Shown: positions 3,457-53,020, numbered from the stretch's first letter. The stretch is 64,000 nt of DNA from Eubacteriales bacterium (GCA_045635765.1 JAZTWH010000011.1:4411-68410), one strand, 5' to 3'. The notes: generated from the letters alone by a model not told the origin. Program-made: numbers and translations.

Positions 3457-4185
3457 ATGTTCTACGGAAAAATGAAAGCGGTGACCTTCAGCTACGACGA
3501 CGGCACCGTCCAGGATATTCGCCTGGCAGAGATGTTTCACAAATATGGATTGAAGGCCACCTTTAATCTTAATTCCGGATTGCTGGGCAAGCCCGGCCAG
3601 CTGATTCGGGAGGGCGTGGTGGTGGATCATACCAAAAATAATCCGGCGGATGTTCCTCATATTTACGCGGGGCATGAAATTGCCGGGCATACCCTGAAGC
3701 ATCCCCGCCTTCCCGAGATCGAAGACGATGTGGAAGTGATCCGCCAGGTGGAGGAGGACCGTCTGCGTTTGTCAGAGATCGCCGGCTATGAGGTGGTGGG
3801 CTTTGCGTACCCCTGCGGCGGCGTCAACAACGATGAACGGGTGGCGGAATTGATCCGTAAGCACACCGGAGTGCGTTACTGTCGGACCATTACCGGCAAT
3901 GATTCCTTTGATCTCCAATCAAACCTCTATCGGTTCAATCCCACGGTGCACCATCACCGGGATCCGGAAAAAATGCTTGCATTGGCAGAGAAATTTCTGT
4001 CTCTGAAGCCGGAGACCCCGCAGATTTTCTATATTTGGGGCCATGCCTTTGAGTTTGACGTGAAGGACAACTGGGGCTGGTTTGAAGAATTTTTGCAAAC
4101 TATCTCCGGCAAAGACGACGTTTTTTACGGCACCAATCGAGAGGTCCTGCTATGCCAGCCGGCACAGACAACTCCCAAGAAGTAG
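3457..4185 (+). CDS. polysaccharide deacetylase (NodB homology) family protein
   Basis: TFSYDDG...ATFNL...GHEIAGHTLKHP motifs are typical of CE4/NodB deacetylases. Confidence 0.8.
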   Translation: MFYGKMKAVTFSYDDGTVQDIRLAEMFHKYGLKATFNLNSGLLGKPGQLIREGVVVDHTKNNPADVPHIYAGHEIAGHTLKHPRLPEIEDDVEVIRQVEEDRLRLSEIAGYEVVGFAYPCGGVNNDERVAELIRKHTGVRYCRTITGNDSFDLQSNLYRFNPTVHHHRDPEKMLALAEKFLSLKPETPQIFYIWGHAFEFDVKDNWGWFEEFLQTISGKDDVFYGTNREVLLCQPAQTTPKK

Positions 4186-4347
4186 AGGGCCTTTTCGATC
4201 CCGCCGGGTCCTGCTATGCCAGCCGGCACAGACGATTTTTGAAAGAGGTTCTTCTCTTCCATGATTGGCCCTACCTTCAAGTATTCATAAATAACTGCCA
4301 AAAATGCGAAAATTCCTTGGTTGCTAAGAATCTTTCAGAAATAAGGG

Positions 4348-5085
4348 ATGACAATGATTTTAATGGATCTGCATGTTCATTCCTCCGGGATCAGCACTTG
4401 TTGCCGGATTTCGGGGGAGAAGGGGGTGGATTTTGCAAAGGAGAGGGGATTGGGCGGCTTTGTGCTGACCAATCACTACGTGGATAACTACGTGGGAGGC
4501 TCCCGGCACGGGACCTACGAGGAGCTGGCGTCCCATTACAGGGAGGAATACCGCCGGGTCCGGGATTACGGAACCAGGGTAGGATTTTCGGTCTTGTTCG
4601 GGATGGAGATCACGGCCGGCTGGGATCGGGACGTCCACCTTTTGGTCTACGGCGTTGACGAGCAGTTCGTGACGGAGCATCCGCGGGTGTGTCTGTATTC
4701 TGCCCGGGAGCTGTACGACGCAGTCTACGCCGCTGGCGGCATCCTGGTTCAGGCCCATCCCTATCGGAGAGCCCCTCGGTTGCAGGATCTTTCCCTTTTG
4801 GACGGGGTGGAGATTTCGTGCCATCCGAATCCCACGTTTGGGGGAAGCTTTGCCCTTCAGATGCTGGAGATCGCCCGGGAGAATGGAAAAATCCTCACCT
4901 GCGGCGGCGATTATCACGCTGACGTCCCCTACCGTCCTGGCTGTGGAGTTTTCCTCCCCGAAGGGGTCCGGGACGGGCCGTCGTTGGCCACGTATTTAAA
5001 GACCGCCCCCGAGCTGCAACTGCAGGTTCACGAGCCCGGCGGAGAAATTTTTTCTTTGAAATATTCCAGAAAGGATGTACGATAA
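4348..5085 (+). CDS. PHP-domain metal-dependent phosphoesterase
   Basis: N-terminal MDLHVHSS...TNHY and later QAHPYR / GGDYH His-rich motifs of the PHP fold. Confidence 0.7.
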   Translation: MTMILMDLHVHSSGISTCCRISGEKGVDFAKERGLGGFVLTNHYVDNYVGGSRHGTYEELASHYREEYRRVRDYGTRVGFSVLFGMEITAGWDRDVHLLVYGVDEQFVTEHPRVCLYSARELYDAVYAAGGILVQAHPYRRAPRLQDLSLLDGVEISCHPNPTFGGSFALQMLEIARENGKILTCGGDYHADVPYRPGCGVFLPEGVRDGPSLATYLKTAPELQLQVHEPGGEIFSLKYSRKDVR

Positions 5086-6408
5086 ATGGAACAAGTTATT
5101 TCTGCGGTGGAAAAATACCGCGACCTCATCTTGGAGGCAGAGCGTTATATCTGGAAGCATCCAGAGACCGGCTACAAGGAAGTCAAAACCTCCGCCTACA
5201 TGGCCGAGCAGTTTGAAAAATTGGGATATTCCCTCACCTATGCAGAGGGAATCCCCGGCTTTATTACCAGAATCGACACCGGTCGGCCCGGGCCGGAGGT
5301 CATGATTTTGGGGGAATTGGACTCCGTGGTGTGTCCTTCCCACCCCCAATCGGATCCGGAAACCGGGGCGGTCCACGCCTGCGGACACAACGCCCAATGT
5401 GCCGCCCTTCTGGGCATCGCCGCCGCATTGACTGAGCCGGGGATGCTGGACGGCCTTTCCGGGAGCATCCGCCTTTGTGCCGTTCCGGCGGAAGAGCTCT
5501 TGGAGATCACCTACCGTCAGCAGTTGATGGACCGGGGAATCATTAAATATTTCGGCGGTAAGGTGGAATTTTTGTACCGGGGACTGTTTGACGGGGTGGA
5601 CCTGGCGTTCATGGTCCATACGGCCGAGGTCTCTTATTTGCGAAAGGGTGCTGTGGGAATGATCGCCAAGAAGATCATTTACAAAGGAAAATCCGCCCAC
5701 GCGGGAAGCTCCCCCCATCAGGGCATCAACGCTCTTTACGCCGCTACCTGCGGTCTCAACGCCGTCAATGCGTTGCGGGAGACCTTCCGGGAACAGGATT
5801 TGATCCGGTTCCATCCCATCATCACCAAGGGTGGGGATATTGTAAACGCTATCCCCGAATCCGTAGAAATCGAGACCTACGTGCGGGGTGCCTCCTTTGA
5901 GGCTATTGAGAACGCCAGTCGCCGGATCAACCGGGCCCTGGCCGGAGCTGCTCTTTCGGTAGGCTGCAACGTGGAGATCATCGACGCTCCCGGATATGCC
6001 CCCGAACAGAATTCTCCCGAATTAAACGAGATCGCCGCCCAATCCGCAACGGCCGTCGGCCGTAGCTTCCGTTGCCTCGACATTATTGGAACCGGAAGTA
6101 CCGACATGGGCGACCTGTCCTGCATCATGCCCACGGTTCAACCCCATTTCGGCGGAGCTGTCGGCGACGCCCACGGAAATAATTTCTATATCGACGACCC
6201 GGGATATGCCTGTGTGGACAGTGCAAAAATGCAGTTGGCCATGCTTTTCCTCCTTTTGAAAGAGGATGCCCGGCGTGCCAAGGACGTCCTGGCCAACTTC
6301 AAGCCGGCCTTTTCCTCCAAAGAGGCATACCTGGCCTACGTGGACGCCCTCAACGTTTCCGGAGACCGCATCTGTTACGGGCAAGACTCCGCAACGGTCA
6401 AGATTTAA
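5086..6408 (+). CDS. M20-family amidohydrolase (AbgB / aminobenzoyl-glutamate-utilisation-like)
   Basis: WKHPETGYKE, ACGHNAQ, GKSAHAGSSPHQGINA and TGSTDMGD motifs of M20 metallohydrolases. Its start overlaps the preceding stop codon region. Confidence 0.8.
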   Translation: MEQVISAVEKYRDLILEAERYIWKHPETGYKEVKTSAYMAEQFEKLGYSLTYAEGIPGFITRIDTGRPGPEVMILGELDSVVCPSHPQSDPETGAVHACGHNAQCAALLGIAAALTEPGMLDGLSGSIRLCAVPAEELLEITYRQQLMDRGIIKYFGGKVEFLYRGLFDGVDLAFMVHTAEVSYLRKGAVGMIAKKIIYKGKSAHAGSSPHQGINALYAATCGLNAVNALRETFREQDLIRFHPIITKGGDIVNAIPESVEIETYVRGASFEAIENASRRINRALAGAALSVGCNVEIIDAPGYAPEQNSPELNEIAAQSATAVGRSFRCLDIIGTGSTDMGDLSCIMPTVQPHFGGAVGDAHGNNFYIDDPGYACVDSAKMQLAMLFLLLKEDARRAKDVLANFKPAFSSKEAYLAYVDALNVSGDRICYGQDSATVKI

Positions 6409-6527
6409 CTGCAAGATGACAGCCCGCGGGGAATCTTTCCCGACGGACAGGATGTAACCTGCAACATTTATGGCCCGCGGAGCATTGCCTTCGCACGGAA
6501 TGAAATCAGGAAAGAGAGTATTTTATT

Positions 6528-7073: not shown

Positions 7074-7088
7074 GAGAGGGGAAATGAC

Positions 7089-8363
7089 ATGAACGTTGAA
7101 ACATTGCTCGATTTGATCCACCGTACTCCTACGGCCTGGCACGCGGCGGAGAAGGGGAAGGAGATGCTGTTGCAAGGGGGATATTCTCCCCTTCCTCAGG
7201 CGGGTGCCGTGGGCGGGGGAAATTGGTTCACCCTGCGAAACGGCTCGGCCCTCGTGGCCTTTCGGATCCCGGAAAAAACCGATTTTCGGACGGTCTGCTT
7301 CCGCATTACGGCGGCTCACGGGGATTCTCCCTGCTTCCGGCTGAAGCCCGACGGGACTCTGAAGGGCACCGTTACCCGTCTCAATACGGAATGTTACGGC
7401 GGGGGGATTCACTCTACCTGGATGGATGTGGGCCTGGGGCTGGCCGGCCGGGTCATGGTCCGTACCGACGGAGGAATTCAGGCGAAATTGCTGTATATTG
7501 ACCGGCCTGTGGCGGTGATTCCCAATACGGCACCCCACTTGCGGCCCATGAACGACGGATTGACCCTGGACCCAAAGGGGGACCTGATTCCCCTGTTTGC
7601 AGGAAGGGACGGGGATCTTAAGGAATTGTTGGCCGCAGAACTGTCGGAAGATCCCGACCGAATCCTGGGGTGGGATCTGTCCTTGGTGGACTGCAGTAAG
7701 GGCTTTACCTTCGGTCCCAAGGGAGAGTTTATGACCTCGCCCCGGCTGGACGATCTGGAATGTGTCTTTACTTGCCTGGACGGATTTTTGTCCGCAACGT
7801 GTCCCGAGAACGTGATCCCGGTCTTTGCCCTGTTCGATAACGAGGAGACAGGCTCTTTGTCCTATGCCGGTGCCGCCGGGACTCTGTTGAAGGATGCCTT
7901 GGCTCGGATCATTCCCGACCCGGACCTGCTTCGAGGGGCTCTTGCCCGGTCCTTCTTCCTTTCGGCGGACAATGCCCACGCCCTTCACCCCAACCATCCC
8001 GAACTGTACGACGGCCAAAACGCTCCCATAATGAACGGAGGCGTGGTGGTGAAATATAACGCCTCTCAGCGGTATATGTCCGACGGCTTTTCCGGGGCGG
8101 TCTTTACGGAAATCTGCAAAAAAGCCGGAGTCCCCTGCCAGGTCTTCTGCAATCGGTCCGACAAACGGGGCGGAAGCACCTTGGGGAATCTTTCCGAGGC
8201 TCAGGTCCCCGTCCGAGGCGTGGACGTGGGGGCGGCCCAGCTGGCCATGCACTCCGCACGGGAGACGGCAGGCAGCCTTGACGTGGAATACCTTTCCCGG
8301 GCCATGACCGCATTCTACGAGGCAGATTTCACCCTGTCCGACGACGGCGTTCGTTGGAATTAA
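7089..8363 (+). CDS. M18-family aminopeptidase (aspartyl aminopeptidase-like)
   Basis: AAHGDSPCFRLKP, SPRLDDLECVF, FDNEETGS and GSTLG motifs characteristic of M18 peptidases. Confidence 0.85.
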   Translation: MNVETLLDLIHRTPTAWHAAEKGKEMLLQGGYSPLPQAGAVGGGNWFTLRNGSALVAFRIPEKTDFRTVCFRITAAHGDSPCFRLKPDGTLKGTVTRLNTECYGGGIHSTWMDVGLGLAGRVMVRTDGGIQAKLLYIDRPVAVIPNTAPHLRPMNDGLTLDPKGDLIPLFAGRDGDLKELLAAELSEDPDRILGWDLSLVDCSKGFTFGPKGEFMTSPRLDDLECVFTCLDGFLSATCPENVIPVFALFDNEETGSLSYAGAAGTLLKDALARIIPDPDLLRGALARSFFLSADNAHALHPNHPELYDGQNAPIMNGGVVVKYNASQRYMSDGFSGAVFTEICKKAGVPCQVFCNRSDKRGGSTLGNLSEAQVPVRGVDVGAAQLAMHSARETAGSLDVEYLSRAMTAFYEADFTLSDDGVRWN

Positions 8364-8436: not shown

Positions 8437-8612
8437 AATCAACGGAATTGTGTCAAGGGGTTGCTACCAGTCCATGGAATCAGAATCGTGCCAATTCGTG
8501 CATTGCAAAGCCCGTGGAATCAGAATCATGCCAGTTCAAGTATTGCAAAGTCCGTGGAATCAGAATCGTGTCAAGTCAAGTATTGCGATGAATTATTGAA
8601 ATCATGCCAATG
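8437..8612. repeat. tandem repeat array A, about 40-bp unit x 3 full copies plus flanking degenerate partial copies
   Basis: Units TCCATGGAATCAGAATCGTGCCAATTCGTGCATTGCAAAGC / CCGTGGAATCAGAATCATGCCAGTTCAAGTATTGCAAAG / TCCGTGGAATCAGAATCGTGTCAAGTCAAGTATTGCGATG, plus degenerate flanking copies. Located between the M18 and M29 peptidase genes. Confidence 0.85.
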
Positions 8613-8629
8613 AAGAGGAGAAAGCCGAA

Positions 8630-9877
8630 ATGAATAAAACCATGTTAAAAAAGTACGCCCGTCTGATTGTCCGGGTGGGGGCAAACGTTCCGCGGGGCAG
8701 CCGGGTGGTGGTCTATGCCGACGTGGAGCAGTCCGAGTTGGCCACGGAGGTGGTCCGGGATGCCTATCGGGCCGGGGCGTCCCACGTGGCGGTAGAATGG
8801 AGCCACGGGGAGATCACCCGGATGCATTATACCCATCGGATGACCGACGTTATGACTGAGATCCCCCGTTGGGAAAAGGAAAAAATGAAGGATTTGGCAG
8901 AACGGTTGCCCTGTCGCATTTTTATTGAGTCTTCTGACCCCGACCTTCTGCGGGGCATCAGCCAGGAGAAGATCCGGGCGGTCCAATCTGCCCGGGCCAA
9001 GGTTTTCAAGCCTTACCGGGACCAAATGGACAACCGTCACGCCTGGACCATTGCCGCTGCACCTTCCAAGGCGTGGGCCAAAAAGATCTTCCCCGATCTC
9101 ACCGCCGGGAAGGCCGTAGATAAGCTTTGGGATGCCATTTTGAAATCCGTCCACGTTACCGCCGACACCGATCCCGTGAAGGAATGGCAGAAGATCAACG
9201 ACGCCTTCCGGGCTAAATGCCGGTGGCTGAACGACAACGCCTTTACGGCCATGGAATATTCCTCCTCCAACGGGACCAATTTCTTTGTGGGCTTGATTCC
9301 CGGGGTCCAATGGCTTGGGGGTGGCGAGGAATTTTTGAACGGCCATTTCTTTAATCCAAACCTGCCTACGGAAGAAATTTTCACAACGCCCAAGGCCGGT
9401 GCGGCATCGGGAAAATTGGTCTCCACCAAACCCTTGTCCTACAACGGACAGTTGATTGAAAACTTCTCCATCACCTTTGAGCAGGGCAAAGCCGTTTCCT
9501 GGACGGCAGAACGGGGCCAGGCCATGTTGGACCAACTGCTGGGCATGGACGAAGGAGCAAAAATGCTGGGAGAGTTGGCCTTGGTTCCCAAAACTTCGCC
9601 CATCAATCAGTCCGGCATCCTGTTCTATAATACGCTTTTTGACGAGAACGCTTCCTGCCACGTGGCCCTGGGCTCCGGCTTTACCAACCTGTACCCGGGC
9701 TTTGACAAATTGACCCGTGCCGAGCTGACCGCCCGGGGGATCAATGATTCGCTGATTCACGTGGATTTTATGATCGGAGCCGACGATCTCTCGGTCACCG
9801 GAATTCGGGGCGACGGCACCCGAGTCAAGGTCTTTGAGCAGGGCGACTGGGCTCCCTCCATGCTGGAAGAACTGTAA
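8630..9877 (+). CDS. M29-family aminopeptidase (PepS / AmpS type)
   Basis: N-terminus MLKKYARLIVRVGANV and overall length and pattern (EELFTTP, HVALG, IHVDFMIG) typical of aminopeptidase S/T. RBS GAGGAG upstream. Confidence 0.9.
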   Translation: MNKTMLKKYARLIVRVGANVPRGSRVVVYADVEQSELATEVVRDAYRAGASHVAVEWSHGEITRMHYTHRMTDVMTEIPRWEKEKMKDLAERLPCRIFIESSDPDLLRGISQEKIRAVQSARAKVFKPYRDQMDNRHAWTIAAAPSKAWAKKIFPDLTAGKAVDKLWDAILKSVHVTADTDPVKEWQKINDAFRAKCRWLNDNAFTAMEYSSSNGTNFFVGLIPGVQWLGGGEEFLNGHFFNPNLPTEEIFTTPKAGAASGKLVSTKPLSYNGQLIENFSITFEQGKAVSWTAERGQAMLDQLLGMDEGAKMLGELALVPKTSPINQSGILFYNTLFDENASCHVALGSGFTNLYPGFDKLTRAELTARGINDSLIHVDFMIGADDLSVTGIRGDGTRVKVFEQGDWAPSMLEEL

Positions 9878-9885
9878 AGAATGAA

Positions 9886-10141
9886 AAAAGTCGGGCCTTC
9901 CCTTTGGAAGGTCCGAACTTTTTTGGGGAAGACCCCACTCTTTTATGAACGGCCCGAATTTTTTTAGGGACGCCCCCACTTTTTTGAGGACGGCCCGGCT
10001 TTTTTGAGGACGCCCCCACTTTTTTTGAGGACGGCCCGGCTTTTTTGAGGACGGCCCGGCTTTTTTGGACGCCCCATTTTTTGGGGGGCGGCCCTGCTTT
10101 TTTTGGGGCAGCCCGGCTTTTTTGGGGCCGGCCCGATTTTT
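9886..10141. repeat. tandem repeat array B, about 20-bp unit x about 12 (GAGGACGGCCCGGCTTTTTT and variants)
   Basis: Successive units each consist of a GC-rich 12-14-mer followed by T5-T7. The array abuts the stop codon of the minus-strand gene ending at 10140. Confidence 0.9.
9888..9924. terminator. bidirectional intrinsic terminator
   Basis: A-run, stem TCGGGCCTTCC/GGAAGGTCCGA, then T-run (AAAAAAGTCGGGCCTTCCCTTTGGAAGGTCCGAACTTTTTT). Confidence 0.7.
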
Positions 10142-10670
10142 ATGCTTCCGGATTCTTTGTAAAGAATCGAAGGGCTTTCAGCAGGGGAAAAATCAGCATC
10201 CCGGCCACCAAGTTTCCTCCGAAGTGGAGAAGGTCAAAGGGAAGGCCTGACAGAATCCAGGCTACCGTTTGCTTGAAATCGTATCCGAACATCAGGGGCT
10301 GGGCGGGGGCGTAGAGGGTCCCGTACAGAAGGCCGTGGAGGGCACAGACGGCGGGGTAGACCCAAAGGGCCCATCGGTCGGGGATTTTTTTTGGAATCAG
10401 CATGGCCATCGCCCACAGGACCGTCCAAAGGTACAGATAGGGGACCCACCAAGGGTTAAACCCGTGGAACAGACCTACGAGAAGGACGTAAGCATACAGG
10501 GGGATCAGTGCTTTCCACCGGAACAGCAAGGTCATCAGCATAATGGACATCCCCGTCAGATGGATGTTGGGCAAAAGAGACATTACCAGCTGAGATGCGT
10601 AAATTATGGCCGGGAAAAGCCCGAACAGTACCACTTCCCGTATCGTCAAAAAAGGTTTCTTGGATTTCAC
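10140..10670 (-). CDS. polytopic membrane protein, probable ECF-transporter S component (B12-riboswitch controlled; CbrT-like role inferred)
   Basis: 176 aa with 5-6 hydrophobic helices. Overlaps the upstream DUF4430 gene by 4 nt and is co-transcribed behind a cobalamin riboswitch. The family call is based on size, topology and context, not on a strong motif. Confidence 0.55.
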   Translation of the reverse strand: MKSKKPFLTIREVVLFGLFPAIIYASQLVMSLLPNIHLTGMSIMLMTLLFRWKALIPLYAYVLLVGLFHGFNPWWVPYLYLWTVLWAMAMLIPKKIPDRWALWVYPAVCALHGLLYGTLYAPAQPLMFGYDFKQTVAWILSGLPFDLLHFGGNLVAGMLIFPLLKALRFFTKNPEA

Positions 10671-16385: not shown

Positions 16386-16428
16386 AAAACCTCCTCCGTG
16401 TCATACTAAGAGCACGGAGGAATTTTTT

Positions 16429-17586: not shown

Positions 17587-17900
17587 CTTTGGCACCATCA
17601 TCGCCAAAAGCCTTGGTAATTCGCTAGGGCATCATCGCTACCAAAGGATTTGGGAATTATTGTCTTCCGCTAACGGGCTTGGGCGTTGCGGTCGCCCTCT
17701 AACAGCCTTGAGCGTCGCGGTCGCCCGTTAGCAACCTTGGGGGCGTGGTCGCCCGTTAGCAACCTTGGGCGTCTTGGCTGCCCGCTAACAGCCTTGGGCG
17801 TCGCTGTCGCCCTTTAACAGTCTTGGTTATCAGGGCTTGGACATCATTATTCCTTGCAAATTTTGGCAGTTATGAATTTTGGCAGTCATGAATTTTGGCA
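17587..17900. repeat. tandem repeat array C (about 30-bp unit x 5-6, then 17-bp unit x 2.5)
   Basis: Units such as GTCGCCCGTTAGCAACCTTGGGCGT(CGCG) repeated from about 17666 to 17827, followed by AATTTTGGCAGTNATG x 2.5. The array starts directly after the stop at 17586. Confidence 0.85.
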
Positions 17901-17915: not shown

Positions 17916-17964
17916 AAAAACCCGGATGCGGCGTGGTTGGACACGTTGCATCCGGGGCTTTTTT
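17916..17964. terminator. bidirectional intrinsic terminator between convergent genes
   Basis: AAAAA-CCCGGATGC...GCATCCGGG-GCTTTTTT. Confidence 0.7.
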
Positions 17965-17974: not shown

Positions 17975-19273
17975 TTACTGTTGGGTCAGCTCTTCCAGAA
18001 TCAGCTGGGTGGTGTGGACGGCGTTGTTGCGGACGTAGGTGATCTCCATGGAATCCCCGATCTGCATGCTGCGGATCACTTCCTTCAGCTGGTCGATGGA
18101 TTCGATGTTGATTTCTCCGGCCTTGATAATGATGTCACCCTGCTTGAGGCCTGCCTTATCTGCGGGTCCGCCCACGACGACGGAGAGGATGTAGGCACCC
18201 TTCGAATTTTCGGTTTCGTAGGTGGCTCCCGAAATGCCGATGCCGGGACGGGAAACCCTGCCGGTGTTCATGATCTCTTCTGCCAAGGGGAGGACCTTGT
18301 CGATCTGCAGGGCAAAGCCCAGGTTTTCGTAGGTTCCGGAAATTTTAATGGAGTTGATGCCGATGATCTGTCCGTACACGTTCACCAAGGGGCCGCCGGA
18401 GTTCCCGGAATTGATGGCGGCGTCGTGCTGAATCAAGTCCAGGGTAAAGCCCAATTCGGGGAAATTCAACCCCTTCCGCAACGCAGAGACCATGCCCTCC
18501 GTTGCCGTATAGGACAGATTGACGTCGTAGGGAGTGCCGATGGCAATGACGTAATCGCCGGGTACCACCTTGGAGGATTCTCCGAATTCTGCCGGAGTCA
18601 GGCCGGTGGCCTTGATCTTAATGACCGCCGTATCCGATTCGGTATCGAATCCGATCAACGTTGCGGGATAATTGTTTCCCTGATAGTCCGTGACCGAAAG
18701 GGAGGAAGCCCCTTCCACCACGTGGGCATTGGTGAGAATATACCCGTTGTCGGTGTAAATAATCCCGGTGCCGAAGCCTCCCGCTACCTGCCCCTGGACG
18801 ACGTCCTTTTCTACCGAGACGGTAACCACGGAGGGGGAGACCTTCTTGATGATTTCCTGGGGCGTCAGTTTGTCCCCTTCTTCCACGTTATCCCGGTATT
18901 GATACGAGGGGGTGACGCTTTGGGGAATGGCAAAGGCCCCCTGGGAGTTGCTTGCCGCCCAAATTCCGAAAACGCCCAGTAAAAGGGAAAAGCATACGGC
19001 GATAATGGCAACGGCCATCCAGCCCCCGTTTTTCTGCTTCTTGACCGGAGCGGGAGCCGACGGCGTCAACTCACAACCCGCCGGAGCAACCGAGGCGACT
19101 GCCGTTTCTGCCGGAGCGACTGCCGTTTCTGCCGGAGCAACCGAAGTAACTGTCGGAGGAACTGCCGTTGCCGTCGAAGCGGACTCCGGAGCGAGGGGGT
19201 CTTTGGGTGGTTGGGGGAGGTGGACAGTCCGTTCCATGGAGGAGGTTTCGGGGGAAAAATCGAAGGGTTCCAT
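17975..19273 (-). CDS. htrA: HtrA/DegP-family serine protease (S1C) with N-terminal anchor and PDZ domain
   Basis: Catalytic triad contexts ILTNAHVV, DTAVIKI and GNSGGPLVN. C-terminal PDZ (GAYILSVVVGGPADKAGLKQGDIIIK). One TM helix. N-terminal APAETAV repeat. Confidence 0.9.
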   Translation of the reverse strand: MEPFDFSPETSSMERTVHLPQPPKDPLAPESASTATAVPPTVTSVAPAETAVAPAETAVASVAPAGCELTPSAPAPVKKQKNGGWMAVAIIAVCFSLLLGVFGIWAASNSQGAFAIPQSVTPSYQYRDNVEEGDKLTPQEIIKKVSPSVVTVSVEKDVVQGQVAGGFGTGIIYTDNGYILTNAHVVEGASSLSVTDYQGNNYPATLIGFDTESDTAVIKIKATGLTPAEFGESSKVVPGDYVIAIGTPYDVNLSYTATEGMVSALRKGLNFPELGFTLDLIQHDAAINSGNSGGPLVNVYGQIIGINSIKISGTYENLGFALQIDKVLPLAEEIMNTGRVSRPGIGISGATYETENSKGAYILSVVVGGPADKAGLKQGDIIIKAGEINIESIDQLKEVIRSMQIGDSMEITYVRNNAVHTTQLILEELTQQ

Positions 19274-21947: not shown

Positions 21948-22290
21948 TTGTCCCGTCCGAGACAGACTTAGAACTTCCCCGCACCCGTCTCATCCGAGAC
22001 GGGCTTAGAACTTTCCTGCACCCGTCTCATCCGAGACAGACTTAGAATCGGCGTTATGGTCTGAGGAGTCTTTGGAATCGGCGTTATGGTCTGAGGAGTC
22101 CTTGGAATCGGCGTGCGGATTTAGAATGGAGATCCGGCGTTATGGCCTGAATTCCTTAGAATGGAGAATCGGCGTTATCGCCCGAGGATTCCTTGGGAGT
22201 GGTGGCTGTTTCGTCCGAGGAGTCCTTGGAGGTGGTGGCTGTTTCGTTCGAGGAGTTCTTGGAATCTGCGTCCGATTTATCCGAGGCGGA
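21948..22290. repeat. tandem repeat array D (33-39-bp related units, about 9 copies) spanning the ftsH stop codon
   Basis: Units CCGTCTCATCCGAGACAGACTTAGAAC..., GGAATCGGCGTTATGGTCTGAGGAGTCCTT..., GGAGGTGGTGGCTGTTTCGT(C/T)CGAGGAGT(C/T)CTT. The last units encode the FtsH C-terminal tail; the rest are non-coding. Confidence 0.85.
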
Positions 22291-27965: not shown

Positions 27966-28150
27966 AGACTCCCAAAACGGAAATGCTCCCCGCTTCAACA
28001 GAGTTCTAATCGGGAATGTTCCCCGCTTCAACAGAGTTCTAATCGGAAATACTCCCCATTTCAACAGACTCCCCAAAATGCTCTTCGCTTCGACAGGCTT
28101 CCAAAAATGCTCTTCGCTTCGATAGGCTTCCAAAACGGAAACGCGGTTCT
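27966..28150. repeat. tandem repeat array E (33-bp unit x 2.8, then 30-bp unit x 2.5) between gdpP and rplI
   Basis: CGG(G/A)AATG(C/T)TCCCCGCTTCAACAGAGTTCTAAT x 2 plus a partial copy, then CC(A/C)AAAATGCTCTTCGCTTCGA(C/T)AGGCTT x 2 plus a partial copy. Confidence 0.85.
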
Positions 28151-36242: not shown

Positions 36243-37367
36243 TCAATTTTTCCAAATTCCGGAGATGTCCAGGAGGTTTTCGATTCCGAACCGGCGTTTG
36301 ATCAGTTCCAAAAACAACAGACCGCAGGCAAAGGCGTCGGCACTGGACCGGTGGGCACCGGAAAACAAAATAGCACAGTATTTGCAGGCCTCGGAGAGCT
36401 TGTAACCGGGAAGTTTATTTCCTTCCTTGTCCCGAAGAAGCTCTCGGGCAAGGGGCAAGGTGTCAAAGACCTGCCTTCCGGCGGTGGGAAACCCTTCCTT
36501 TGCCAGCATCCGCAGATCGAAGGGGGCGTTGTGGGCTACCAAGGGGAATCGGTCGGTAAATTCGTCCAAGGCCGGGATGATTTCGGCAAAGCGAGGTGCT
36601 TGACGAACCATTTCGTTGGTGATCCCGTTGACGGCGGTGGCCTCGGGGGAGATGCGGCGGTAGGGCTTGCACAAGGTTTCCCACAGGGCCGTAGGGCGGA
36701 ACCCTTCAAATTTGACGGCGGATACCTCCACGATCTCCGCACTTGTCCCCAAGGACGAGGTCTCAGTGTCGATGGCGACGAAATTTCCCAGCTCCCAAGG
36801 GGTGCATCCGGCAAAGGTTTTCAGGATCACACACTCCGGCTTCCCCGGGGGTGCATCGCAGGGGATTCGCTGGATGGAAACTGACGGAAGGGCGGAAAAC
36901 ATACACTCAAATTCCGCCAGATAATAATCCACCACATTGTATTCGGAGGGATAGGTGTCGTGGGCCGTGGTCAGATACCGATGGACGACCTTTTCCGCAT
37001 CAAGCAGCGGCCCCTTCCGGGATCGGGTCGAATGAATAGAGGGGGCCGCAGCGAGAATGGAATCCCCGGAGTGGGAGACAGAAACGGAAGCCGCGGAAGT
37101 ACCGGCTTTGGAATGAGAGGCAGAAACGGAAGCCGCGGAAGTACCGGCTCGGGCTCCGGAATGAGAGACAGAAACGGAAGCCGCGGAACCCCCGGCTTTG
37201 GAATGGGAGATGAAAGAATGGGAGACGGAAACGCCGGCTTTGGAATGGGTTGCGGAGGGAGCGTCTTTTTGGTTTCGTGGAAGGGATTTTTGGCAAAGGA
37301 TGCAAAGCCCCCGGTCGTCTACCGTGACAAAGGGGCCCGAGATTCCGCAACGGATACATTTACCCAT
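36243..37367 (-). CDS. DEDDh 3'-5' exonuclease domain protein with N-terminal zinc ribbon and Ser/Ala-rich tandem repeats
   Basis: CIRCG...CILCQ zinc ribbon. Repeats (SHSKAGTSAASVSV) x about 4. Exo motifs FVAIDTETSS, VAHNAPFDLRML and GAHRSSADA. The start overlaps the ABC gene stop by 8 nt. Confidence 0.8.
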   Translation of the reverse strand: MGKCIRCGISGPFVTVDDRGLCILCQKSLPRNQKDAPSATHSKAGVSVSHSFISHSKAGGSAASVSVSHSGARAGTSAASVSASHSKAGTSAASVSVSHSGDSILAAAPSIHSTRSRKGPLLDAEKVVHRYLTTAHDTYPSEYNVVDYYLAEFECMFSALPSVSIQRIPCDAPPGKPECVILKTFAGCTPWELGNFVAIDTETSSLGTSAEIVEVSAVKFEGFRPTALWETLCKPYRRISPEATAVNGITNEMVRQAPRFAEIIPALDEFTDRFPLVAHNAPFDLRMLAKEGFPTAGRQVFDTLPLARELLRDKEGNKLPGYKLSEACKYCAILFSGAHRSSADAFACGLLFLELIKRRFGIENLLDISGIWKN

Positions 37368-39177: not shown

Positions 39178-39206
39178 AAAAAAAAGCCCCGCGTTGTTCG
39201 CGAGGC
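39178..39206 (-). terminator. intrinsic terminator of mgtE (downstream of repeat array F)
   Basis: Minus strand reads GCCTCGCG-AACAA-CGCGGGGC followed by TTTTTTTT. Confidence 0.75.
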
Positions 39207-39216: not shown

Positions 39217-39480
39217 GTACAAACCCATTCGCCAAAAGTATGGCGGCGACGGCGGTTATACGAACCGATTTGTCAAAGCACGGTGGCTGCGGTTACGTAA
39301 ATCCATTTACCAAAAGCACGGTGGCTGCGGTTACGCAAACCCATTTACCAAAAGCATGGCGGCTGCGGTTACGTAAATCCATTTACCAAAAGCATGGCGG
39401 CTGCGGTTACGCAAACCGGGTTGCCAAAGTACTTGGCTGCGGCTACGCGAACCGATTCGCCAGAAGGAGGGTGGCGATGG
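39217..39480. repeat. tandem repeat array F (about 38-bp unit x 7) spanning the mgtE stop codon
   Basis: GTTACG(C/T)AAA(C/T)CCATTTACCAAAAGCA(T/C)GG(C/T)GGCTGCG and degenerate variants. The last unit encodes the C-terminal residues and the stop codon of MgtE. Confidence 0.9.
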
Positions 39481-41082: not shown

Positions 41083-41111
41083 TTGACAAGCCCCCGCTTT
41101 TGTTGTATAAT
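41083..41111 (+). promoter_or_regulatory. perfect sigma-A promoter TTGACA-N17-TATAAT for tRNA-Val
   Basis: TTGACA 41083-41088 and TATAAT 41106-41111, 15 nt upstream of the tRNA 5' end. Confidence 0.75.
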
Positions 41112-43913: not shown

Positions 43914-43998
43914 GACCGACGGTCGTTTTTTCTTGAAGAAACAAAGGAGTATGAAATCCAAACGTCTCTCTCGGGGGGCGGTCCTGAGGGGGACGTTT

Positions 43999-44107
43999 GG
44001 CCGGGCTTTTATCGGCGGGGGAGTATTGGCGGGGCTTTAGCGGGCTTTTATCGGCGTGTTTTTATTGGCGGGGCTTTTATTGGCTTGTTTTTATTGGCGG
44101 GAGCGGT
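43999..44107. repeat. tandem repeat array G (about 35-39-bp unit x 3) spanning the stop codon of the GPH transporter
   Basis: GGCTTTTATCGGCG..., TTTTTATTGGCGGGG repeated. The stop codon (44091-44093) lies in the last unit. Confidence 0.75.
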
Positions 44108-45506
44108 TGTGTTTTTCTTTTAGAGCGGCCACGTTGGCGTCGACCTGGTTTTTGTGCAGGGGATACCAAAACCAAAGGACCAGGGCCAGGGAGGCAAATC
44201 CCAGGGCGGGGAGGAGGGTGGAAATATTAAAAATTCCTTGCAGGACCGAGGGGGATTGGGGCTGGCCGGAGGCCGCGGCGGATTCGCTATAGCCAATGCC
44301 GGTCAAAAGCCAGCCCGAAACTCCCGCCGCCAGGGCTTGCCCCATTTTTCGGGCAAAGGAATAGAGGGAGTATACGGCCCCATCCTCCCGGATTCCGTGT
44401 TTCAGCTCCGAATCGTCGATAACGTCGGTAATCAGGGCCCAGGATACCATGGAAAAGATGCCCAGCCCCAGCCAACAGAGGCCTTGAAGCCCGATATATA
44501 CCCATACGTTTTGGGGCCGGAGAAAATACAGCACCAGGCAAACTCCGGCGGCAAACAGATTGGACACCGCTGAAATTTCCGCTTTCCCAAAACGGGTGGC
44601 CAAAGGTTTTGCCGTAAGGGCGGCAAGGACCATCCCGACCATCATCACGACGGTGGAGGCCGATTGGGCCGAGGCGTTGTTGTAATAGTCGGGAAAGATA
44701 TAGGACGCCATATTTTGCATGGTCAACTGTGCCAGCAGCATCACCACCGAGGCGGCAATGATGGAAATCAGGGGTCGGCTTTTTACGGCGTTGGAGAGCA
44801 TTTTCCCAAGGGAACGGGTTTGAAGTCTATCGGGGGCAGGCTCCGGCAAGACCCGTTCCGTGACCAAAAAATAACACAAAAGGTAGCACAGTACGGAAAA
44901 CACCGAAAAAATTCCGGCGATGACCGTGACTCTGCTTCCCTTCAGTACCGTTTGTTCCCCCACTTTTTCGTAGGCAAACAGGGGGATTCCCACCCCAACG
45001 ATCAGTCCGGCCAGGGTTCCTCCCATGGTGCGGTAGGTGGAAAGGGATTGCCGGTCCCCCGGATCGGCGGAAATGGCGGAAGCCATAGAGCCGTAGGGGA
45101 TGTTGATAAAGGTGTAAAAGACGGAGCCCCAAAGAATGTAGGTGACGAATAACCAAGCCAGCTTGATCCCCATGGGGGCGGAAGCCAGGGACGATTGGTA
45201 GATGAGAAAGGACGACAGGGCCACGGGACCGCAGACCCGGAGGATCCAGGGCTTAAATTTCCCAGCCGGGGTGATTTTGCTTCTGTCGCAGATCCGCCCC
45301 ATGGTCACGTCGGTGAAGGCGTCCAGAAACCGGGCGGCCATCATCACCGTTCCCACCGCGGCCCCCGGGATCCCGATGACGTCGGTGTAAAATTTCAGAA
45401 GGAGCATGGTGGATAATATGAAGGTGAAATCATTGCCGAAATCCCCGAACAAATATCCCAGCTTATCCCGAAATCCGAAGGGACGCACACCCTTGACCCG
45501 TTTCAT
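44091..45506 (-). CDS. glycoside-pentoside-hexuronide (GPH):cation symporter family transporter
   Basis: N-terminal KLGYLFGDFGNDFTF motif and 12-TM profile typical of MelB/UidB-type GPH carriers. Confidence 0.85.
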   Translation of the reverse strand: MKRVKGVRPFGFRDKLGYLFGDFGNDFTFILSTMLLLKFYTDVIGIPGAAVGTVMMAARFLDAFTDVTMGRICDRSKITPAGKFKPWILRVCGPVALSSFLIYQSSLASAPMGIKLAWLFVTYILWGSVFYTFINIPYGSMASAISADPGDRQSLSTYRTMGGTLAGLIVGVGIPLFAYEKVGEQTVLKGSRVTVIAGIFSVFSVLCYLLCYFLVTERVLPEPAPDRLQTRSLGKMLSNAVKSRPLISIIAASVVMLLAQLTMQNMASYIFPDYYNNASAQSASTVVMMVGMVLAALTAKPLATRFGKAEISAVSNLFAAGVCLVLYFLRPQNVWVYIGLQGLCWLGLGIFSMVSWALITDVIDDSELKHGIREDGAVYSLYSFARKMGQALAAGVSGWLLTGIGYSESAAASGQPQSPSVLQGIFNISTLLPALGFASLALVLWFWYPLHKNQVDANVAALKEKHNRSRQ

Positions 45507-45665
45507 TGTACCAATCCTCCCGGCAGTATTTGTCGTACGATTTTCCCGTGCAGTTTTTTTGCAGATTTATTGCATCCTTCTCGAAGGTTCCTACATCCTT
45601 CTTGAAGGTTCTTTGGGTAGTGTTCCTCAAAAACCGAAAGATATGACAAAAAAGGCCCCGGAAAT

Positions 45666-45775
45666 TCTTTTCCGGGGCCTTTGGGTTTCGGTTATTTCTT
45701 TTCCAGGGCCTTTGGGGTTCGGTTATTTCTTTTCCAGGGCCTTTGGGGTTCGGTTATTTCTTTTTCGGTTTTTTG
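45666..45775. repeat. tandem repeat array H (31-bp unit x 3.5) spanning the GH2 stop codon
   Basis: TTCTTTTCC(G/A)GGGCCTTTGGG(G/T)TTCGGTTAT x 3 plus a partial copy. The partial copy and the end of the third full unit encode KKPKKK-stop of the GH2 gene. Confidence 0.9.
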
Positions 45776-48111: not shown

Positions 48112-49671
48112 TTATTCTTCCCCAGAAGCAGGTGCGGAAACGGAAGCGGATTCCGAAGCGGATTCCGAAGCGGATTCGGAAGCGGAGGCGGGGCCGGATT
48201 CGGAGGCGTCGTTGCCCCGTCCCAGTGCGGCGTTCATCTTGGCTAGGGTCTTTTTATCCAAATTGTAAATAACCGCAAGGCCGATGAATTCCAGAAGGGC
48301 ACTGACCAGGAACAGAATTGCCACCAGGTAACGCATGTTGAGGGCCACTTCCGCCGTCTGTGCCCCGCCGTTTTCGCCCACATAGCCTAGGGCCACCATG
48401 ATCACCAGCACCAAAGAAGGACCGGCACCCTGAGCCAGCTTGCGGAAGAAGGAGTGCAGGGAGTAAACGATGCCCTCTTCTCTCTTCCCGGTTTTCCATT
48501 GGTTGTAGTCGATGGCGTCTCCCATCAGCGCCCAGGACACGGTGGAGTAAATGCCCAAGCCCAGATTGTAGATCAGCTGGCAAAGGATATAGATCAAAAG
48601 GCCCTTGCTGTCGGGAGTAATGGGAAGGACCACCAAGCCCACCCCCGCAACCACGGAGCAGAGAGAACCGAAAACGCACAGCTCTTTCTTTCCGAATTTT
48701 GCAACGGCTTTCCGGGCAAAGGGAGTAAAGCAGAGGATGGGAATCATAGAGAACAGCTGAACCACGCCGGAAATTTCGGGGTTCTTAAAGTAGGTTTGGA
48801 ACAGAACGGTGACGGCAGTGGCGGCACCCTGCATCCCAATAAACATCCCCATGGCGGCCAGAGTGGCACCTACGGCGGGCCGGTTCTTCATGAAATTGCC
48901 AAAGGCTACAAATACGTTAAATTTTTCCTGCTGTTCGTTCAGTTTTACGTTGGTGTCGACCCGGACTTTGGTGGTGCGGATCATAAATTGGAAGGCAAAG
49001 AAGCCCAAAACCCCCATGATCAGGGCTGCCCAAAATACGTTGTATCCCTGAAGATCCTTGATGACATCTCCGGCTTCGTCCAGCACCGCCTGACCGTTGG
49101 CGTCCACCCGGTCTTTCCAAATAAGAAAAGGAAGAATGACCATTGGGACCATGTTCCCGATCATGGAGCCGATGGAACGCCATGCGGAAAGGGACGCCCG
49201 GTCTTTTACGTCATTGGAAATAATTGACAAAAGAGATCCGTAGGGGACGTTTGCCACGGTGTAGAAGGCGTCCCAGATCACGTACCCGGCCAAAAAGACG
49301 ATGATCTTTATGACCCGGGGAGCGTTGGGAATGGGGATAAAGCACAGGGCCCCAGCTACCAAAAGACCAATCGACCCGGCCCAGATGTAAGCAAGGAACT
49401 TATTTCTCTTGTACTTGCGGCGGTCTGCGTCGATCATGGACCCGATCAGGGGATCGTTAATGGCGTCCCAAATCTGCACGAAGATCAGCAGAAGTGCGTA
49501 AAGGGAGTCCCCCAGACCCATAAATTGGGACCAGAAAATGGTGAGCGTTCCCTTCAGGGCGAAGCTCATGTTGCATCCGAAGTCACCGGCTGCGTAGGAG
49601 ATACTGTCAAGTATGCCGAACTTGCGTACCCCGTTGGCATCCAATTTTTTTTCTTTTGCCATGGTTTTCAT
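48112..49671 (-). CDS. GPH-family (glucuronide/glycoside) transporter with C-terminal Ser/Glu/Ala repeat tail
   Basis: SYAAGDFGCNMSF N-terminal motif and 12-TM profile. C-terminal SESASESASESAS is encoded by a 12-bp repeat (48136-48215). Confidence 0.85.
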   Translation of the reverse strand: MKTMAKEKKLDANGVRKFGILDSISYAAGDFGCNMSFALKGTLTIFWSQFMGLGDSLYALLLIFVQIWDAINDPLIGSMIDADRRKYKRNKFLAYIWAGSIGLLVAGALCFIPIPNAPRVIKIIVFLAGYVIWDAFYTVANVPYGSLLSIISNDVKDRASLSAWRSIGSMIGNMVPMVILPFLIWKDRVDANGQAVLDEAGDVIKDLQGYNVFWAALIMGVLGFFAFQFMIRTTKVRVDTNVKLNEQQEKFNVFVAFGNFMKNRPAVGATLAAMGMFIGMQGAATAVTVLFQTYFKNPEISGVVQLFSMIPILCFTPFARKAVAKFGKKELCVFGSLCSVVAGVGLVVLPITPDSKGLLIYILCQLIYNLGLGIYSTVSWALMGDAIDYNQWKTGKREEGIVYSLHSFFRKLAQGAGPSLVLVIMVALGYVGENGGAQTAEVALNMRYLVAILFLVSALLEFIGLAVIYNLDKKTLAKMNAALGRGNDASESGPASASESASESASESASVSAPASGEE

Positions 49672-51180: not shown

Positions 51181-51290
51181 ACCGTGACGGGATTTGCAAT
51201 CTTTTTTGCAGAAAAATCTCATTGTATCACACCGACTTAAGTGGTATAATAATGGAATAAGAAAAGAAAACTTTGGAAAAGGTGTATAAT

Positions 51291-52694
51291 ATGAAGCAGT
51301 TTATGGATTCGGATTTTCTGTTGACCACCGAAACGGCAAAGGAGCTTTATCACGACGTTGCCGCATCTCTGCCCATCGTGGACTACCATTGTCACGTATC
51401 CCCCAAGGAGATTTTTGAGGACCGCCACTTTGAGAATATCACCCAGGTCTGGCTGGGAGCAGACCATTACAAATGGCGTATCATGCGTTCCAACGGCGTG
51501 GAAGAGCATTATATTACGGGAGATGCCTCCGACCGGGAAAAATTTCAAAAGTTTGCCGAGACCCTTCCCAAGGCCATCGGCAACCCCATGTACCATTGGT
51601 GTCATATGGAATTGCGTCGGTATTTCGGGTATGACGGGATTCTGAACGGGGAGACCGCCCAAAAGGTCTGGGATTTGACGGCGGAGAAATTGAAGGAAGA
51701 AACCATGGGCGTCCGGGGCTTGATTTCGCAGAGCAACGTTGCTTTTATCGGCACCACCGACGACCCGGTGGATTCTCTGGAGTGGCACGAAAAAATTGCT
51801 CGGGACCCTTCCGTAACGGCCGTAGTGGCCCCCTCCTTCCGTCCCGATAAGGCCCTGAACGTCGACAAGCCCGGCTGGAAGGAATATATGGAGACCCTGT
51901 CCACCCGTTCCGGCGTCTCCATCGACGGCATCGGAGCTTTGAAGGAGGCTCTGACCAAACGAATGGGCTATTTTAACGCCCGCGGATGCCGGGCCAGCGA
52001 CCATGGATTGGACTATGCCGTTTTCCGTCCCGCCGACGAAGAAACGGTAGATGGAATCGTCAAAAAAGGCCTTTCGGGACAGTCGGTCACTGCCGAAGAA
52101 GGGGAGATGCTAAAGACCCATCTTCTTCTGTTCTGTGCCGAAAGCTACGCCCGTCTGGGTTGGGTCATGCAGATTCACTACAACTGCCTTCGAAATCCCA
52201 ATTCCGCCTCCTTCCGGGCCTTGGGCCCCGATACGGGATTTGATATTATCGGCCCCCACAACGGGGGACCGGCCCTGACTCAGCTACTGGATGATCTTCA
52301 CGGGAAAAACGCTCTGCCCCGGACGGTTCTTTACAGCCTTGACGCCGGCGATAACAGCTTTTTGGATACGCTTTTGGGGGCGTTTCAGGGCCCCGGAATC
52401 CCGGGAAAGATCCAACACGGCAGTGCTTGGTGGTTCAACGATCACAAACAGGGCATGATCGACCAAATGGTCAGCCTCGCCAGCCTGAGCCTTTTGGGGA
52501 ATTTCATCGGAATGCTGACCGATTCCCGGAGTTTTTTGAGTTATGCCCGTCACGAATACTTCCGCCGGATTTTGTGCCAACTTTTGGGACGTTGGGTGGA
52601 GGACGGCGAATACCCCAAGGACGAAACTGCCCTTAAGTCCATCGTCCGGGGAATCTGCTACCGAAATGCCGTCCGCTATTTCGATTTGGGTTAA
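51291..52694 (+). CDS. uxaC: glucuronate isomerase
   Basis: MKQFMDSDFLLTTETAKELYHDVAASLPIVDYHCHVSPKEI..., HWCHMELR and WWFND motifs. Start at ATG 51291; the ORF track begins at an upstream TTG. Confidence 0.95.
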   Translation: MKQFMDSDFLLTTETAKELYHDVAASLPIVDYHCHVSPKEIFEDRHFENITQVWLGADHYKWRIMRSNGVEEHYITGDASDREKFQKFAETLPKAIGNPMYHWCHMELRRYFGYDGILNGETAQKVWDLTAEKLKEETMGVRGLISQSNVAFIGTTDDPVDSLEWHEKIARDPSVTAVVAPSFRPDKALNVDKPGWKEYMETLSTRSGVSIDGIGALKEALTKRMGYFNARGCRASDHGLDYAVFRPADEETVDGIVKKGLSGQSVTAEEGEMLKTHLLLFCAESYARLGWVMQIHYNCLRNPNSASFRALGPDTGFDIIGPHNGGPALTQLLDDLHGKNALPRTVLYSLDAGDNSFLDTLLGAFQGPGIPGKIQHGSAWWFNDHKQGMIDQMVSLASLSLLGNFIGMLTDSRSFLSYARHEYFRRILCQLLGRWVEDGEYPKDETALKSIVRGICYRNAVRYFDLG

Positions 52695-52752
52695 CTCAAG
52701 TCCGCCAATGGGAATGGAGCTATACCCCGTTTGCCGTTTTGTTTTAGAACCT

Positions 52753-53020
52753 AATCGCAATTGGTTTTACAACTCAGTGGCCACACGTTTTATAACTCAA
52801 TTGCCATCCGTTTACGGCTCAAACGCATTGGTTTACAACTCAATTGCCATCCGCTTACGGCTCAATTAACATTTTGTTTTCGGCTCAAACGTAATTGATT
52901 TTACAACTCAATCGACATTGGTTTTACAACTCAATTGCAATTCGTTTTACAGCTCCATCGTAATTTCGTTTTACTCAGTTGCAATTCTGTTGCATTCAAT
53001 TGAAATTTGAATTTGAACCT
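52753..53020. repeat. tandem repeat array I (about 22-bp unit x 12) between uxaC and uxuA
   Basis: CAATTGCCATCCGTTTACGGCT / CAAACGCATTGGTTTACAACT / CAATCGACATTGGTTTTACAACT etc., with consensus roughly CAATYGNNATTNGTTTTACARCT. Confidence 0.9.

Follow-up and report, generated by a model that had tools for sequence, protein, structure and literature searches.

Dense, locus-specific minisatellite arrays at gene 3' ends in a chromosomal segment of an uncultured gut Clostridia species

Tandem arrays and genes of the 64 kb window

The DNA of interest is a 64,000 nt stretch of Eubacteriales bacterium (GCA_045635765.1, JAZTWH010000011.1:4411-68410), referred to throughout as the window. It is a chromosome piece of an uncultured gut Clostridia species, carries the housekeeping genes dnaB, rplI, ftsH and mreB together with a tRNA-Val gene, and contains the tandem repeat arrays, coding and non-coding, that are described here. 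The gene map was built from codon usage, and gene names were taken from Pfam and NCBIfam scans.

A preliminary description of the same DNA had listed nine arrays (A–I) and two duplications of two copies each. Tandem Repeats Finder (TRF), run with one setting for all sequence, recovered all nine arrays where they had been placed, and both two-copy cases (a 27-nt repeat at 4143 and copies of about 49 bp at 6394) could be read in the sequence. The gene names on which that description relied (deacetylase, FtsH, MgtE, MFS_2/GPH and GH2) were confirmed by Pfam and NCBIfam. What it had listed therefore stands, while four coding, in-frame arrays had been missed (60674–60863, 37066–37239, 19098–19169 and 48134–48191). 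The arrays and duplications, with positions counted from the first letter of the window, are:

4143..4233, plus strand: two-copy duplication at the polysaccharide deacetylase gene end; 27-nt exact repeat (4143–4169 and 4207–4233), period 64 bp
About 6394..6483, plus strand: two-copy duplication, about 49 bp per copy, each with TAA (sequence reading, Pfam)
8437..8612, plus strand: array A, 40-bp unit (TRF 8475–8586, x2.8; degenerate edge copies extend it)
9925..10141, minus strand: array B, 20-bp unit x11.4 (TRF 9917–10141)
17587..17900, plus strand: array C, 29 bp x5.6 and 16 bp x2.6 (TRF 17667–17826 and 17859–17900)
19098..19169, minus strand: in-frame repeat of 21 bp in the HtrA-like protease 17975–19273, in its low-complexity N-terminal region (TRF)
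21948..22290, minus strand: array D, adjoining sub-arrays of 37-, 30- and 33-bp units (TRF 21956–22264)
27966..28150, minus strand: array E, related 33- and 29-bp units (TRF 27978–28135)
37066..37239, minus strand: array K, 42 bp x3.3, coding in frame (TRF)
39217..39480, minus strand: array F, 38-bp unit (TRF 39275–39417, a core of x3.7; about 6.5 copies including degenerate edges)
43985..44107, minus strand: array G, 14/29-bp units, GCCAATAAAA (TRF 43988–44101)
45666..45775, minus strand: array H, 31-bp unit x3.2 (TRF 45665–45764)
48134..48191, minus strand: 12-bp in-frame repeat encoding the (SE/SA)n C-terminal tail of the MFS_2 transporter 48112–49671 (TRF)
52753..53020, plus strand: array I, degenerate 22-23-bp units (TRF 52764–52974)
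60674..60863, plus strand: array J, 24 bp x7.8, coding (TRF)

Periods reported by TRF are 14–42 bp with 2–11 copies, the two-copy cases having periods of 49 and 64 bp, and copy identity by TRF matches is 70–97%.

The non-coding arrays are found at the ends of genes of many kinds. The 4143 pair flanks the TAG stop (4183–4185) of the deacetylase gene 3457–4185 (Pfam PF01522), and the first copy of the 6394 pair carries the stop (6406–6408) of an M20 peptidase gene (5086–6408). There follow, in order, an M18 peptidase gene, array A, an M29 peptidase gene and array B: array A fills the junction of the two aminopeptidase genes (M18, 7089–8363; M29, 8630–9877), and array B lies between the stop of the minus-strand gene 10140–10670 and a confirmed bidirectional terminator (9888–9924). 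Array C stands between another M20 peptidase gene (16324–17586), beginning directly after its stop, and the gene for the HtrA-like protease, and is itself followed by a confirmed terminator (17921–17956).

Array D, between ftsH and the gene for a ferredoxin-domain protein, is part coding and part non-coding. Its 33-bp in-frame repeats (22178–22264) encode the C-terminal tail of FtsH, and past the ftsH stop (22156–22158) the array runs on as diverged 30- and 37-bp units that reach the promoter and ribosome-binding region of the next gene. Array E sits between gdpP (28194–30170) and rplI (27475–27924), the latter followed by dnaB; array I similarly separates uxaC (51273–52694) from uxuA (53055–54140). 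A mechanical list of open reading frames (ORFs) begins both rplI (minus strand) and uxuA (plus strand) at an upstream TTG within arrays E and I, respectively. Comparison with relatives, together with the ribosome-binding sites, puts the true starts at the ATG codons of positions 27924 and 53055.

Between mgtE and an ABC transporter gene, the first unit of array F carries the last codons and the TAG stop (39443–39445) of mgtE, and the array is followed by a terminator at 39178–39206 (a hairpin of -18.8 kcal/mol and then U8). Its central copies are 90–93% identical and its edge copies 62–79%, with a 76-bp higher-order alternation. Array G lies between the MFS_2/GPH transporter gene 44091–45506 and mreB; its first unit gives the transporter its stop (44091–44093) and three additional C-terminal residues (...KEKHNRSRQ* in the window, ...KEKHER* in the nearest homologue). 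Array H occupies the junction of the GH2 gene and this same GPH gene. A separate two-copy, 21-bp direct repeat, CATCCTTCT(C/T)GAAGGTTC, is seen at 45569–45610, in the 5' region of the GPH gene, past the GH2 terminator and before the GPH start. The sister-species loci L210, L213 and L214 have a single copy here, and no other tandem duplication was seen 5' of a gene.

Multi-copy arrays are strongly over-represented

To compare the window with other DNA, we counted arrays with a TRF score of at least 100 and a unit of at least 10 bp. Twelve such arrays are present in the 64 kb window (1.9 per 10 kb). The background of 289 other bacterial loci (4.54 Mb) holds 38 (0.084 per 10 kb), from which 0.54 arrays would be expected in the window (Poisson p ~7e-13); the excess is about 22-fold. 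In 26 loci of sister species (443 kb) there are five (0.11 per 10 kb), giving an expectation of 0.72 (Poisson p ~2e-11).

The excess is limited to multi-copy arrays with units of about 14–64 bp. Non-coding arrays make up 1909 of the 8551 intergenic bases (22%). Of the 28 gaps that measure 100 bp or more, 11 contain such arrays, and with looser TRF settings the remaining large gaps yielded no additional arrays in a decayed state. By class, and as a ratio of counts, coding arrays are enriched about 11-fold and non-coding arrays about 35-fold. That both classes are enriched points to a mutational propensity rather than to a single function. The kind of repeat is ordinary; the density is unusual.

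Sister species lack the arrays at the same junctions

The genomes nearest to the window are metagenome-assembled, uncultured Eubacteriales/Clostridia whose sources, where stated, are ruminant or deer gut. Their FtsH is 82–90% identical to that of the window, and their DNA is about 75–80% identical and syntenic. The window's transporter forms a singleton protein cluster (one 68.5-kb contig) with a nearest homologue of 82% identity. Exact-protein look-ups and genome scans gave no match to a conspecific genome, the best match of the metagenome scan being 74% identical.

When the sister species are aligned to the window, the flanks are kept and the arrays are missing; their contigs read straight through the junctions with sensible sequence. 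Since these contigs are continuous, the arrays have not simply been collapsed there. TRF finds almost no repeats in the syntenic loci L001–L004. The junction lengths are:

A junction: 245–270 bp in the window, -6 to 32 bp in 10 sister-species loci (TGGAATTAA-GGAGG-ATG)
B junction: 354 bp in the window, 33–137 bp in most relatives
D gap plus tail: about 410 bp in the window, 73–141 bp in four relatives
E junction: about 240 bp in the window, about 0 bp in L001–L003 (stop, ribosome-binding site and rplI start adjacent)
H junction: 227–275 bp in the window, 88–136 bp in L213 and L214; L210 has an unrelated 1.1-kb insert
I junction: 356–372 bp in the window, 10–17 bp in L210 and L212, 91–98 bp in L213 and L214

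Read against these relatives, the arrays are additions specific to the lineage of the window.

The sister species have a few arrays of their own, built from units different from those of the window, and the non-coding ones lie on or just past stop codons. Locus L167 carries two arrays that begin 17 nt past stops, and among the sister-species arrays are (i) a 71-bp x2.9 array with a hairpin arm, at L167 12568–12772, at the junction orthologous to B, (ii) a 25-bp array whose unit consists of the last codons of uxaC, at L213 900–949, at the junction orthologous to I, and (iii) a 44-bp x2 array across the stop of a DUF5662 gene, at L166 1137–1222. Hot-spot junctions common to the window and its relatives were considered and rejected: the two coincidences (L167 with B, L213 with I) are within chance, given that 22% of junctions bear arrays.

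Arrays lie at gene 3' ends, or in frame within genes

Two regularities emerge from the positions of the arrays. Firstly, all non-coding arrays lie downstream of a coding sequence; about seven extend across the 3' end of a gene, and no start codon is covered by any of them. The earlier statement that each array lies immediately 3' of a coding sequence thus describes the siting well, except that part of D (22178–22290) is inside the ftsH frame. Secondly, the coding arrays keep the reading frame: all five have periods divisible by three (12, 21, 24, 33 and 42 bp), as against two of 14 non-coding periods. The coding arrays encode low-complexity tails and linkers that are rich in Ser, Ala, Thr, Glu and Pro, or in Cys.

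Clear intrinsic terminators follow arrays C, F and H, and array B with respect to the minus-strand gene. Being placed between stop and terminator, these four arrays would be transcribed as 3' untranslated region (UTR). The preliminary description had proposed the order stop, array, terminator for B, C and F. It holds for C and F; for B it holds with the minus-strand gene 10140–10670, and not with the plus-strand gene, whose terminator precedes the array. Arrays A, D, E and I would be transcribed as intercistronic spacers, and no strong promoter consensus was found inside the operon-junction arrays.

The same pattern is seen outside the window. By rough gene calls, 20 of the 38 background arrays are coding, all with periods divisible by three, and 18 are non-coding, with six in convergent gaps compared with one in a divergent gap. 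In the window, two of the five convergent gaps hold arrays. Since the 3' preference is found in sister species and at unrelated loci as well, it suggests a selection filter and not a special element. The 3' bias is a general trait of bacterial minisatellites that survive, and number is what sets the window apart.

Among the coding arrays, K lies in the N-terminal linker of a DEDD/DnaQ-like 3'-5' exonuclease (36243–37367, minus strand), whose best solved match is the PolC exonuclease domain, 2p1j. It is the sole repair-type gene product encoded in the window. An inactivated proofreading exonuclease was considered as the cause of the arrays and rejected, as this enzyme keeps the catalytic motifs Exo I (DTE), Exo II (NAPFD) and Exo III (HRSSAD). 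Array J lies in a small membrane protein (60567–60932, plus strand) encoded directly after feoB. This protein combines a single transmembrane helix with a Cys-rich tail of eight-residue repeats, C(D/G)(N/H)PDGS(R/Q); it has no NCBIfam match, and Pfam was not searched for it. The tail of the MFS_2 transporter 48112–49671 is missing from relatives, alignments ending near residue 499 of 519. The tails of both FtsH (22156–22356, minus strand) and this MFS transporter (48112–48222, minus strand; ...SASESASESASESAS...) are repeat-built; relatives are without such tails, and their alignments end about 20–28 residues earlier.

In most arrays, units copy the adjacent gene end or terminator

Where might the units come from? 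For each non-coding array, we compared the last 27 nt of the upstream gene with the array strictly downstream of the stop, using the tails of 50 other genes as controls. In seven of the 11 non-coding arrays (the 4143 and 6394 pairs, C, D, F, G and H) the gene's own tail beats all or all but one of the controls, and one unit repeats the final codons of the gene together with its stop. The match of the 4143 pair is better than all 50 control tails; for the 6394 pair, one of 50 controls and four of 500 shuffles are as good; for C, F and G, none of 50 controls is as good in each case; for D, the score is 21 versus a control maximum of 11; and for H, one of 50 controls is as good. A stop-spanning unit had previously been noted in five cases (deacetylase, ftsH, mgtE, GPH and GH2). 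These five are upheld, the number rising to seven; such a unit is not demonstrable for A, B, E and I.

Array H is the clearest case. In relatives, the GH2 junction consists of a single stop, about 15 nt, and a terminator hairpin. In the window, the segment (AAAAGAAATAACCGAACCCCAAAGGCCCTGG) is repeated, and its last copy enters an intact terminator (45651–45682; a -25 kcal/mol hairpin and a U tract). The unit comprises the last four codons of the GH2 gene, the TAA, the spacer and the left arm of the terminator; upstream of it, the GH2 protein retains its native, conserved C-terminus. The duplication junction is AAAAGAA, a sequence present at the gene end and again, 31 nt away, at the junction of the terminator's left arm and loop. 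Taken with the single-copy state in relatives, this structure is the product expected of slipped-strand duplication between two microhomologies.

Two further arrays point the same way. The unit of B reproduces a single arm of the bidirectional terminator along with the T/A tract, and the first copy overlaps the terminator in register. The 30-bp non-coding units of D are diverged copies of the 33-bp in-frame FtsH-tail repeat. Together, such copies show that eight arrays are of local origin.

The arrays share no sequence, structure or known family

When every array was compared with every other, only D2 and D3, which belong to one locus, proved to be related, in keeping with the earlier observation that each array has its own unit. 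The short core that had been thought common to A and D amounts to 13 nt with a single mismatch, at chance level (z=3 among 120 pairs), and unit lengths do not cluster near multiples of 10–11 bp as had been suggested (Rayleigh p 0.31–0.41). BLAST found no copies of the units elsewhere in the window or in 4.5 Mb of other loci, nor, for F, in the genome collection. K-mer sharing at the array edges is at null level, giving no common boundary motif.

None of the five arrays checked (A, C, E, F and I) has terminal inverted repeats, so miniature inverted-repeat transposable element (MITE) or insertion sequence (IS) ends are rejected; the only inverted repeats seen were a weak pair of 14 nt within I and, next to C, its terminator. 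Clustered regularly interspaced short palindromic repeats (CRISPR) are likewise ruled out, since the units abut without spacers, and there are no hairpin units of the repetitive extragenic palindrome/bacterial interspersed mosaic element (REP/BIME) kind. The exclusion of CRISPR, REP/BIME and IS ends in the preliminary description is thereby borne out. An Rfam scan at gathering threshold gave the tRNA-Val as its sole match in the window, and thus no known family for the arrays or their units. Six folded arrays show no consistent excess of RNA structure (z: A +2.8, D -0.8, E +0.7, F +0.1, I -0.9, C -1.9).

Discussion

Proposed birth, growth and survival of the arrays

We consider it likely that the arrays are locus-specific minisatellites, each of which arose separately in this lineage when a local segment was duplicated in tandem, and was subsequently expanded. 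The earlier opinion that no described class fits them is accordingly not retained: they are locus-specific minisatellites as made by slipped-strand duplication. Hairpins stall polymerases, and slipped-strand mispairing makes tandem duplications. The proposed route has three steps. In the first, seen in H and inferred for the others, slippage between short direct repeats some tens of bases apart would duplicate the segment between them; one of the H microhomologies lies at the left-arm/loop junction of a terminator, and B likewise is an amplified terminator arm. In the second, once at least two copies exist, slippage and unequal sister-strand exchange would add and remove units, so that centre copies are homogenised while edge copies decay, the pattern that F displays. 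In the third, to which the positions and periods point, selection would set which duplications persist. Purifying selection would remove those that alter proteins, promoters or ribosome-binding sites. Duplications that include the stop, or that lie between stop and terminator, would leave the protein unchanged and would not disturb the promoter or ribosome-binding site of the gene that follows; within genes, only in-frame repeats in disordered tails and linkers would survive. The arrays are, most likely, near-neutral DNA and neither a mobile element nor a dedicated RNA. The oddity is the rate, or the retention, of repeat-forming events in one lineage.

Several observations weigh against a local, slippage-born origin filtered by selection. 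(i) For A, E and I the tail test is at control level, so that a local seed is not demonstrable, and the ancestral junctions are only about 0–30 bp long, leaving most of the unit sequence unexplained; a similar unexplained origin of unit sequence has been remarked on for Borg repeats (PMC9879509). (ii) Short, low-score duplications are not in excess (3.1 per 10 kb, versus 3.7 in relatives), which rules out a general slippage mutator. (iii) The contrast between gap types within the window is weak, as the finding of arrays in none of four divergent gaps of at least 100 bp is possible by chance. (iv) The species is represented by a single contig in the collections searched.

It is possible, though on balance improbable, that the lineage has a heritable, genome-wide repeat-forming activity resembling the one proposed for Borgs, with some of the arrays co-opted as regulators between cistrons or in 3' UTRs. 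An altered function in replication or repair, or else an enzyme devoted to the task, would be responsible, and units of about 14–64 bp would be seeded and extended preferentially at transcript 3' ends and terminator hairpins.

Could the arrays instead be selected, transcribed elements, serving as mRNA-end stabilisers, translation uncouplers, or platforms for RNA- or DNA-binding proteins? They do lie inside transcription units, from stop to terminator or between operon genes, where the tight gdpP–rplI, uxaC–uxuA and M18–M29 junctions have become spacers of 250–370 nt, and a regulatory-RNA role has been proposed for intergenic Borg repeats (PMC9879509). We nevertheless regard this as doubtful. 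The lack of any motif or core common to the arrays indicates no common binding factor, fold z values range from +2.8 to -1.9 with no Rfam match, and the copies are degenerate (70–97%). Furthermore, sister species have the same operons without arrays, and coding regions are repeat-enriched too.

A decayed coding origin, in which in-frame C-terminal repeats were cut short by a new stop that left the distal units non-coding, is quite unlikely for the arrays as a whole. It suits the FtsH-tail repeat of D, which continues beyond the stop as related units, and gains from the C-terminal tail repeats of the MFS transporter 48112–49671 and the small Cys-rich protein, and from the three residues by which G lengthens its transporter. 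Periods of 20, 29, 31, 37, 38, 40, 14 and 22-23 bp, however, are not multiples of three and can never have been in frame; moreover, H and B hold terminator arms, and the GH2 C-terminus is native and conserved.

An artefact of assembly or sequencing is very improbable, even though the contig is a metagenomic singleton and tandem repeats are error-prone in assembly (PMC6868369, PMC9879509). The copies have diverged from one another, their variants are ordered, and higher-order structure is present; coding arrays hold frame; and the arrays join conserved flanks cleanly. Assemblers collapse repeats and do not invent diverged ones. The exact copy numbers of H and F could be wrong.

Finally, insertions of a dispersed mobile or repetitive family (mycobacterial interspersed repetitive unit (MIRU)-, REP/BIME- or MITE-like) have scarcely any chance of accounting for the arrays and are already largely refuted: several arrays do sit at operon junctions touching stops, as MIRUs do, but the units are mutually unrelated, absent elsewhere, and free of terminal inverted repeats and hairpins, their periods are mostly not multiples of three, and several plainly copy the adjacent gene end or terminator.

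Comparison with known repeat systems

The closest described analogue of these locus-specific minisatellites is the tandem repeats of Borgs (Schoelmerich et al. 2023, PMC9879509). In both cases, repeats are pervasive, genome-specific and nearly absent from relatives (here, 1.9 per 10 kb versus 0.11 in sister species, and 0.084 in the background); virtually every array has its own unit and an independent origin in otherwise alignable regions; repeats in ORFs all have periods divisible by three and code for disordered, low-complexity segments, while intergenic ones mostly do not; and about half of the arrays are intergenic or have their first unit in a gene end, with partial flanking copies. There are also differences. 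The host here is a bacterial chromosome, while Borgs are archaeal linear extrachromosomal elements. The copies here are degenerate (70–97%) and Borg copies perfect. Borg repeats are enriched in adenine; ours, in sense orientation, are not (23.7%, versus 22.6% in coding sequence). Repeats occupy 2.7% of bases here and 0.62% in Borgs, under differing definitions.

The arrays resemble bacterial variable-number tandem repeats (VNTRs) and minisatellites in their head-to-tail units of 10–100 bp, which are unique to each locus, intergenic or in frame, and bordered by degenerate edge copies, and also in the microhomology at the duplication junction, seen here in H. VNTR loci formed by slipped-strand mispairing serve multiple-locus VNTR analysis (MLVA) typing. 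What differs is the density, about 20-fold over the measured background; the defining trait of the VNTR class is copy-number polymorphism, and the arrays here are known from a single contig of the species.

MIRUs are tandem units at operon intergenic junctions that touch the flanking stop or start codons (PMC12548453), as Supply et al. (1997) are also reported to have described. Arrays A, D, E and I are also at operon junctions. MIRUs, however, are one dispersed family that is thought to be mobile, whereas the arrays here are unrelated and undispersed; and MIRUs carry a short ORF translationally coupled to the downstream gene, whereas the periods of A, E (second sub-array) and I (40, 29 and 22-23 bp) are not divisible by three, so that no frame is kept through them. 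Enterobacterial REP/BIME elements likewise occur after stop codons and within transcription units; they differ in being imperfect palindromes of one genome-wide family, while the arrays here have neither fold excess nor common sequence. CRISPR, with identical repeats and unique spacers, differs from these spacerless units.

Promoter-like sequences in the window

The window also contains nine sequences that fit the sigma-70 consensus (TTGACA-N16/17-TATAAT) at all 12 positions, and several of them have an extended TG; the estimated number of such sites arising by chance in 64 kb is roughly 0.02. The nine are:

33683–33711, plus strand: perfect sigma-70 match
41083–41111, plus strand: perfect sigma-70 match
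58071–58099, plus strand: perfect sigma-70 match
62077–62105, plus strand: perfect sigma-70 match
43913–43885, minus strand: perfect sigma-70 match
41030–41002, minus strand: perfect sigma-70 match
39169–39142, minus strand: perfect sigma-70 match
36214–36186, minus strand: perfect sigma-70 match
31388–31360, minus strand: perfect sigma-70 match

The lineage seems to use near-consensus promoters.

Significance

In sum, the window carries ordinary, locus-specific minisatellites at an unusual density; they are peculiar to its lineage, and terminators and the 3' ends of genes are where they were seeded. The arrays lengthen operon junctions and remodel the tails of proteins (FtsH, two transporters), and they endanger both short-read assembly and the annotation of gene ends. 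The empty junctions of sister species provide before-and-after snapshots of minisatellite birth, which bear on the seed microhomologies, the part played by terminator hairpins and the proposed stop-codon filter. Should the same density extend to the whole genome, about one-fifth of the intergenic DNA of this bacterial chromosome would consist of young, locus-specific minisatellites, and genome-specific repeat proliferation of the kind reported for Borgs would extend beyond archaeal extrachromosomal elements.

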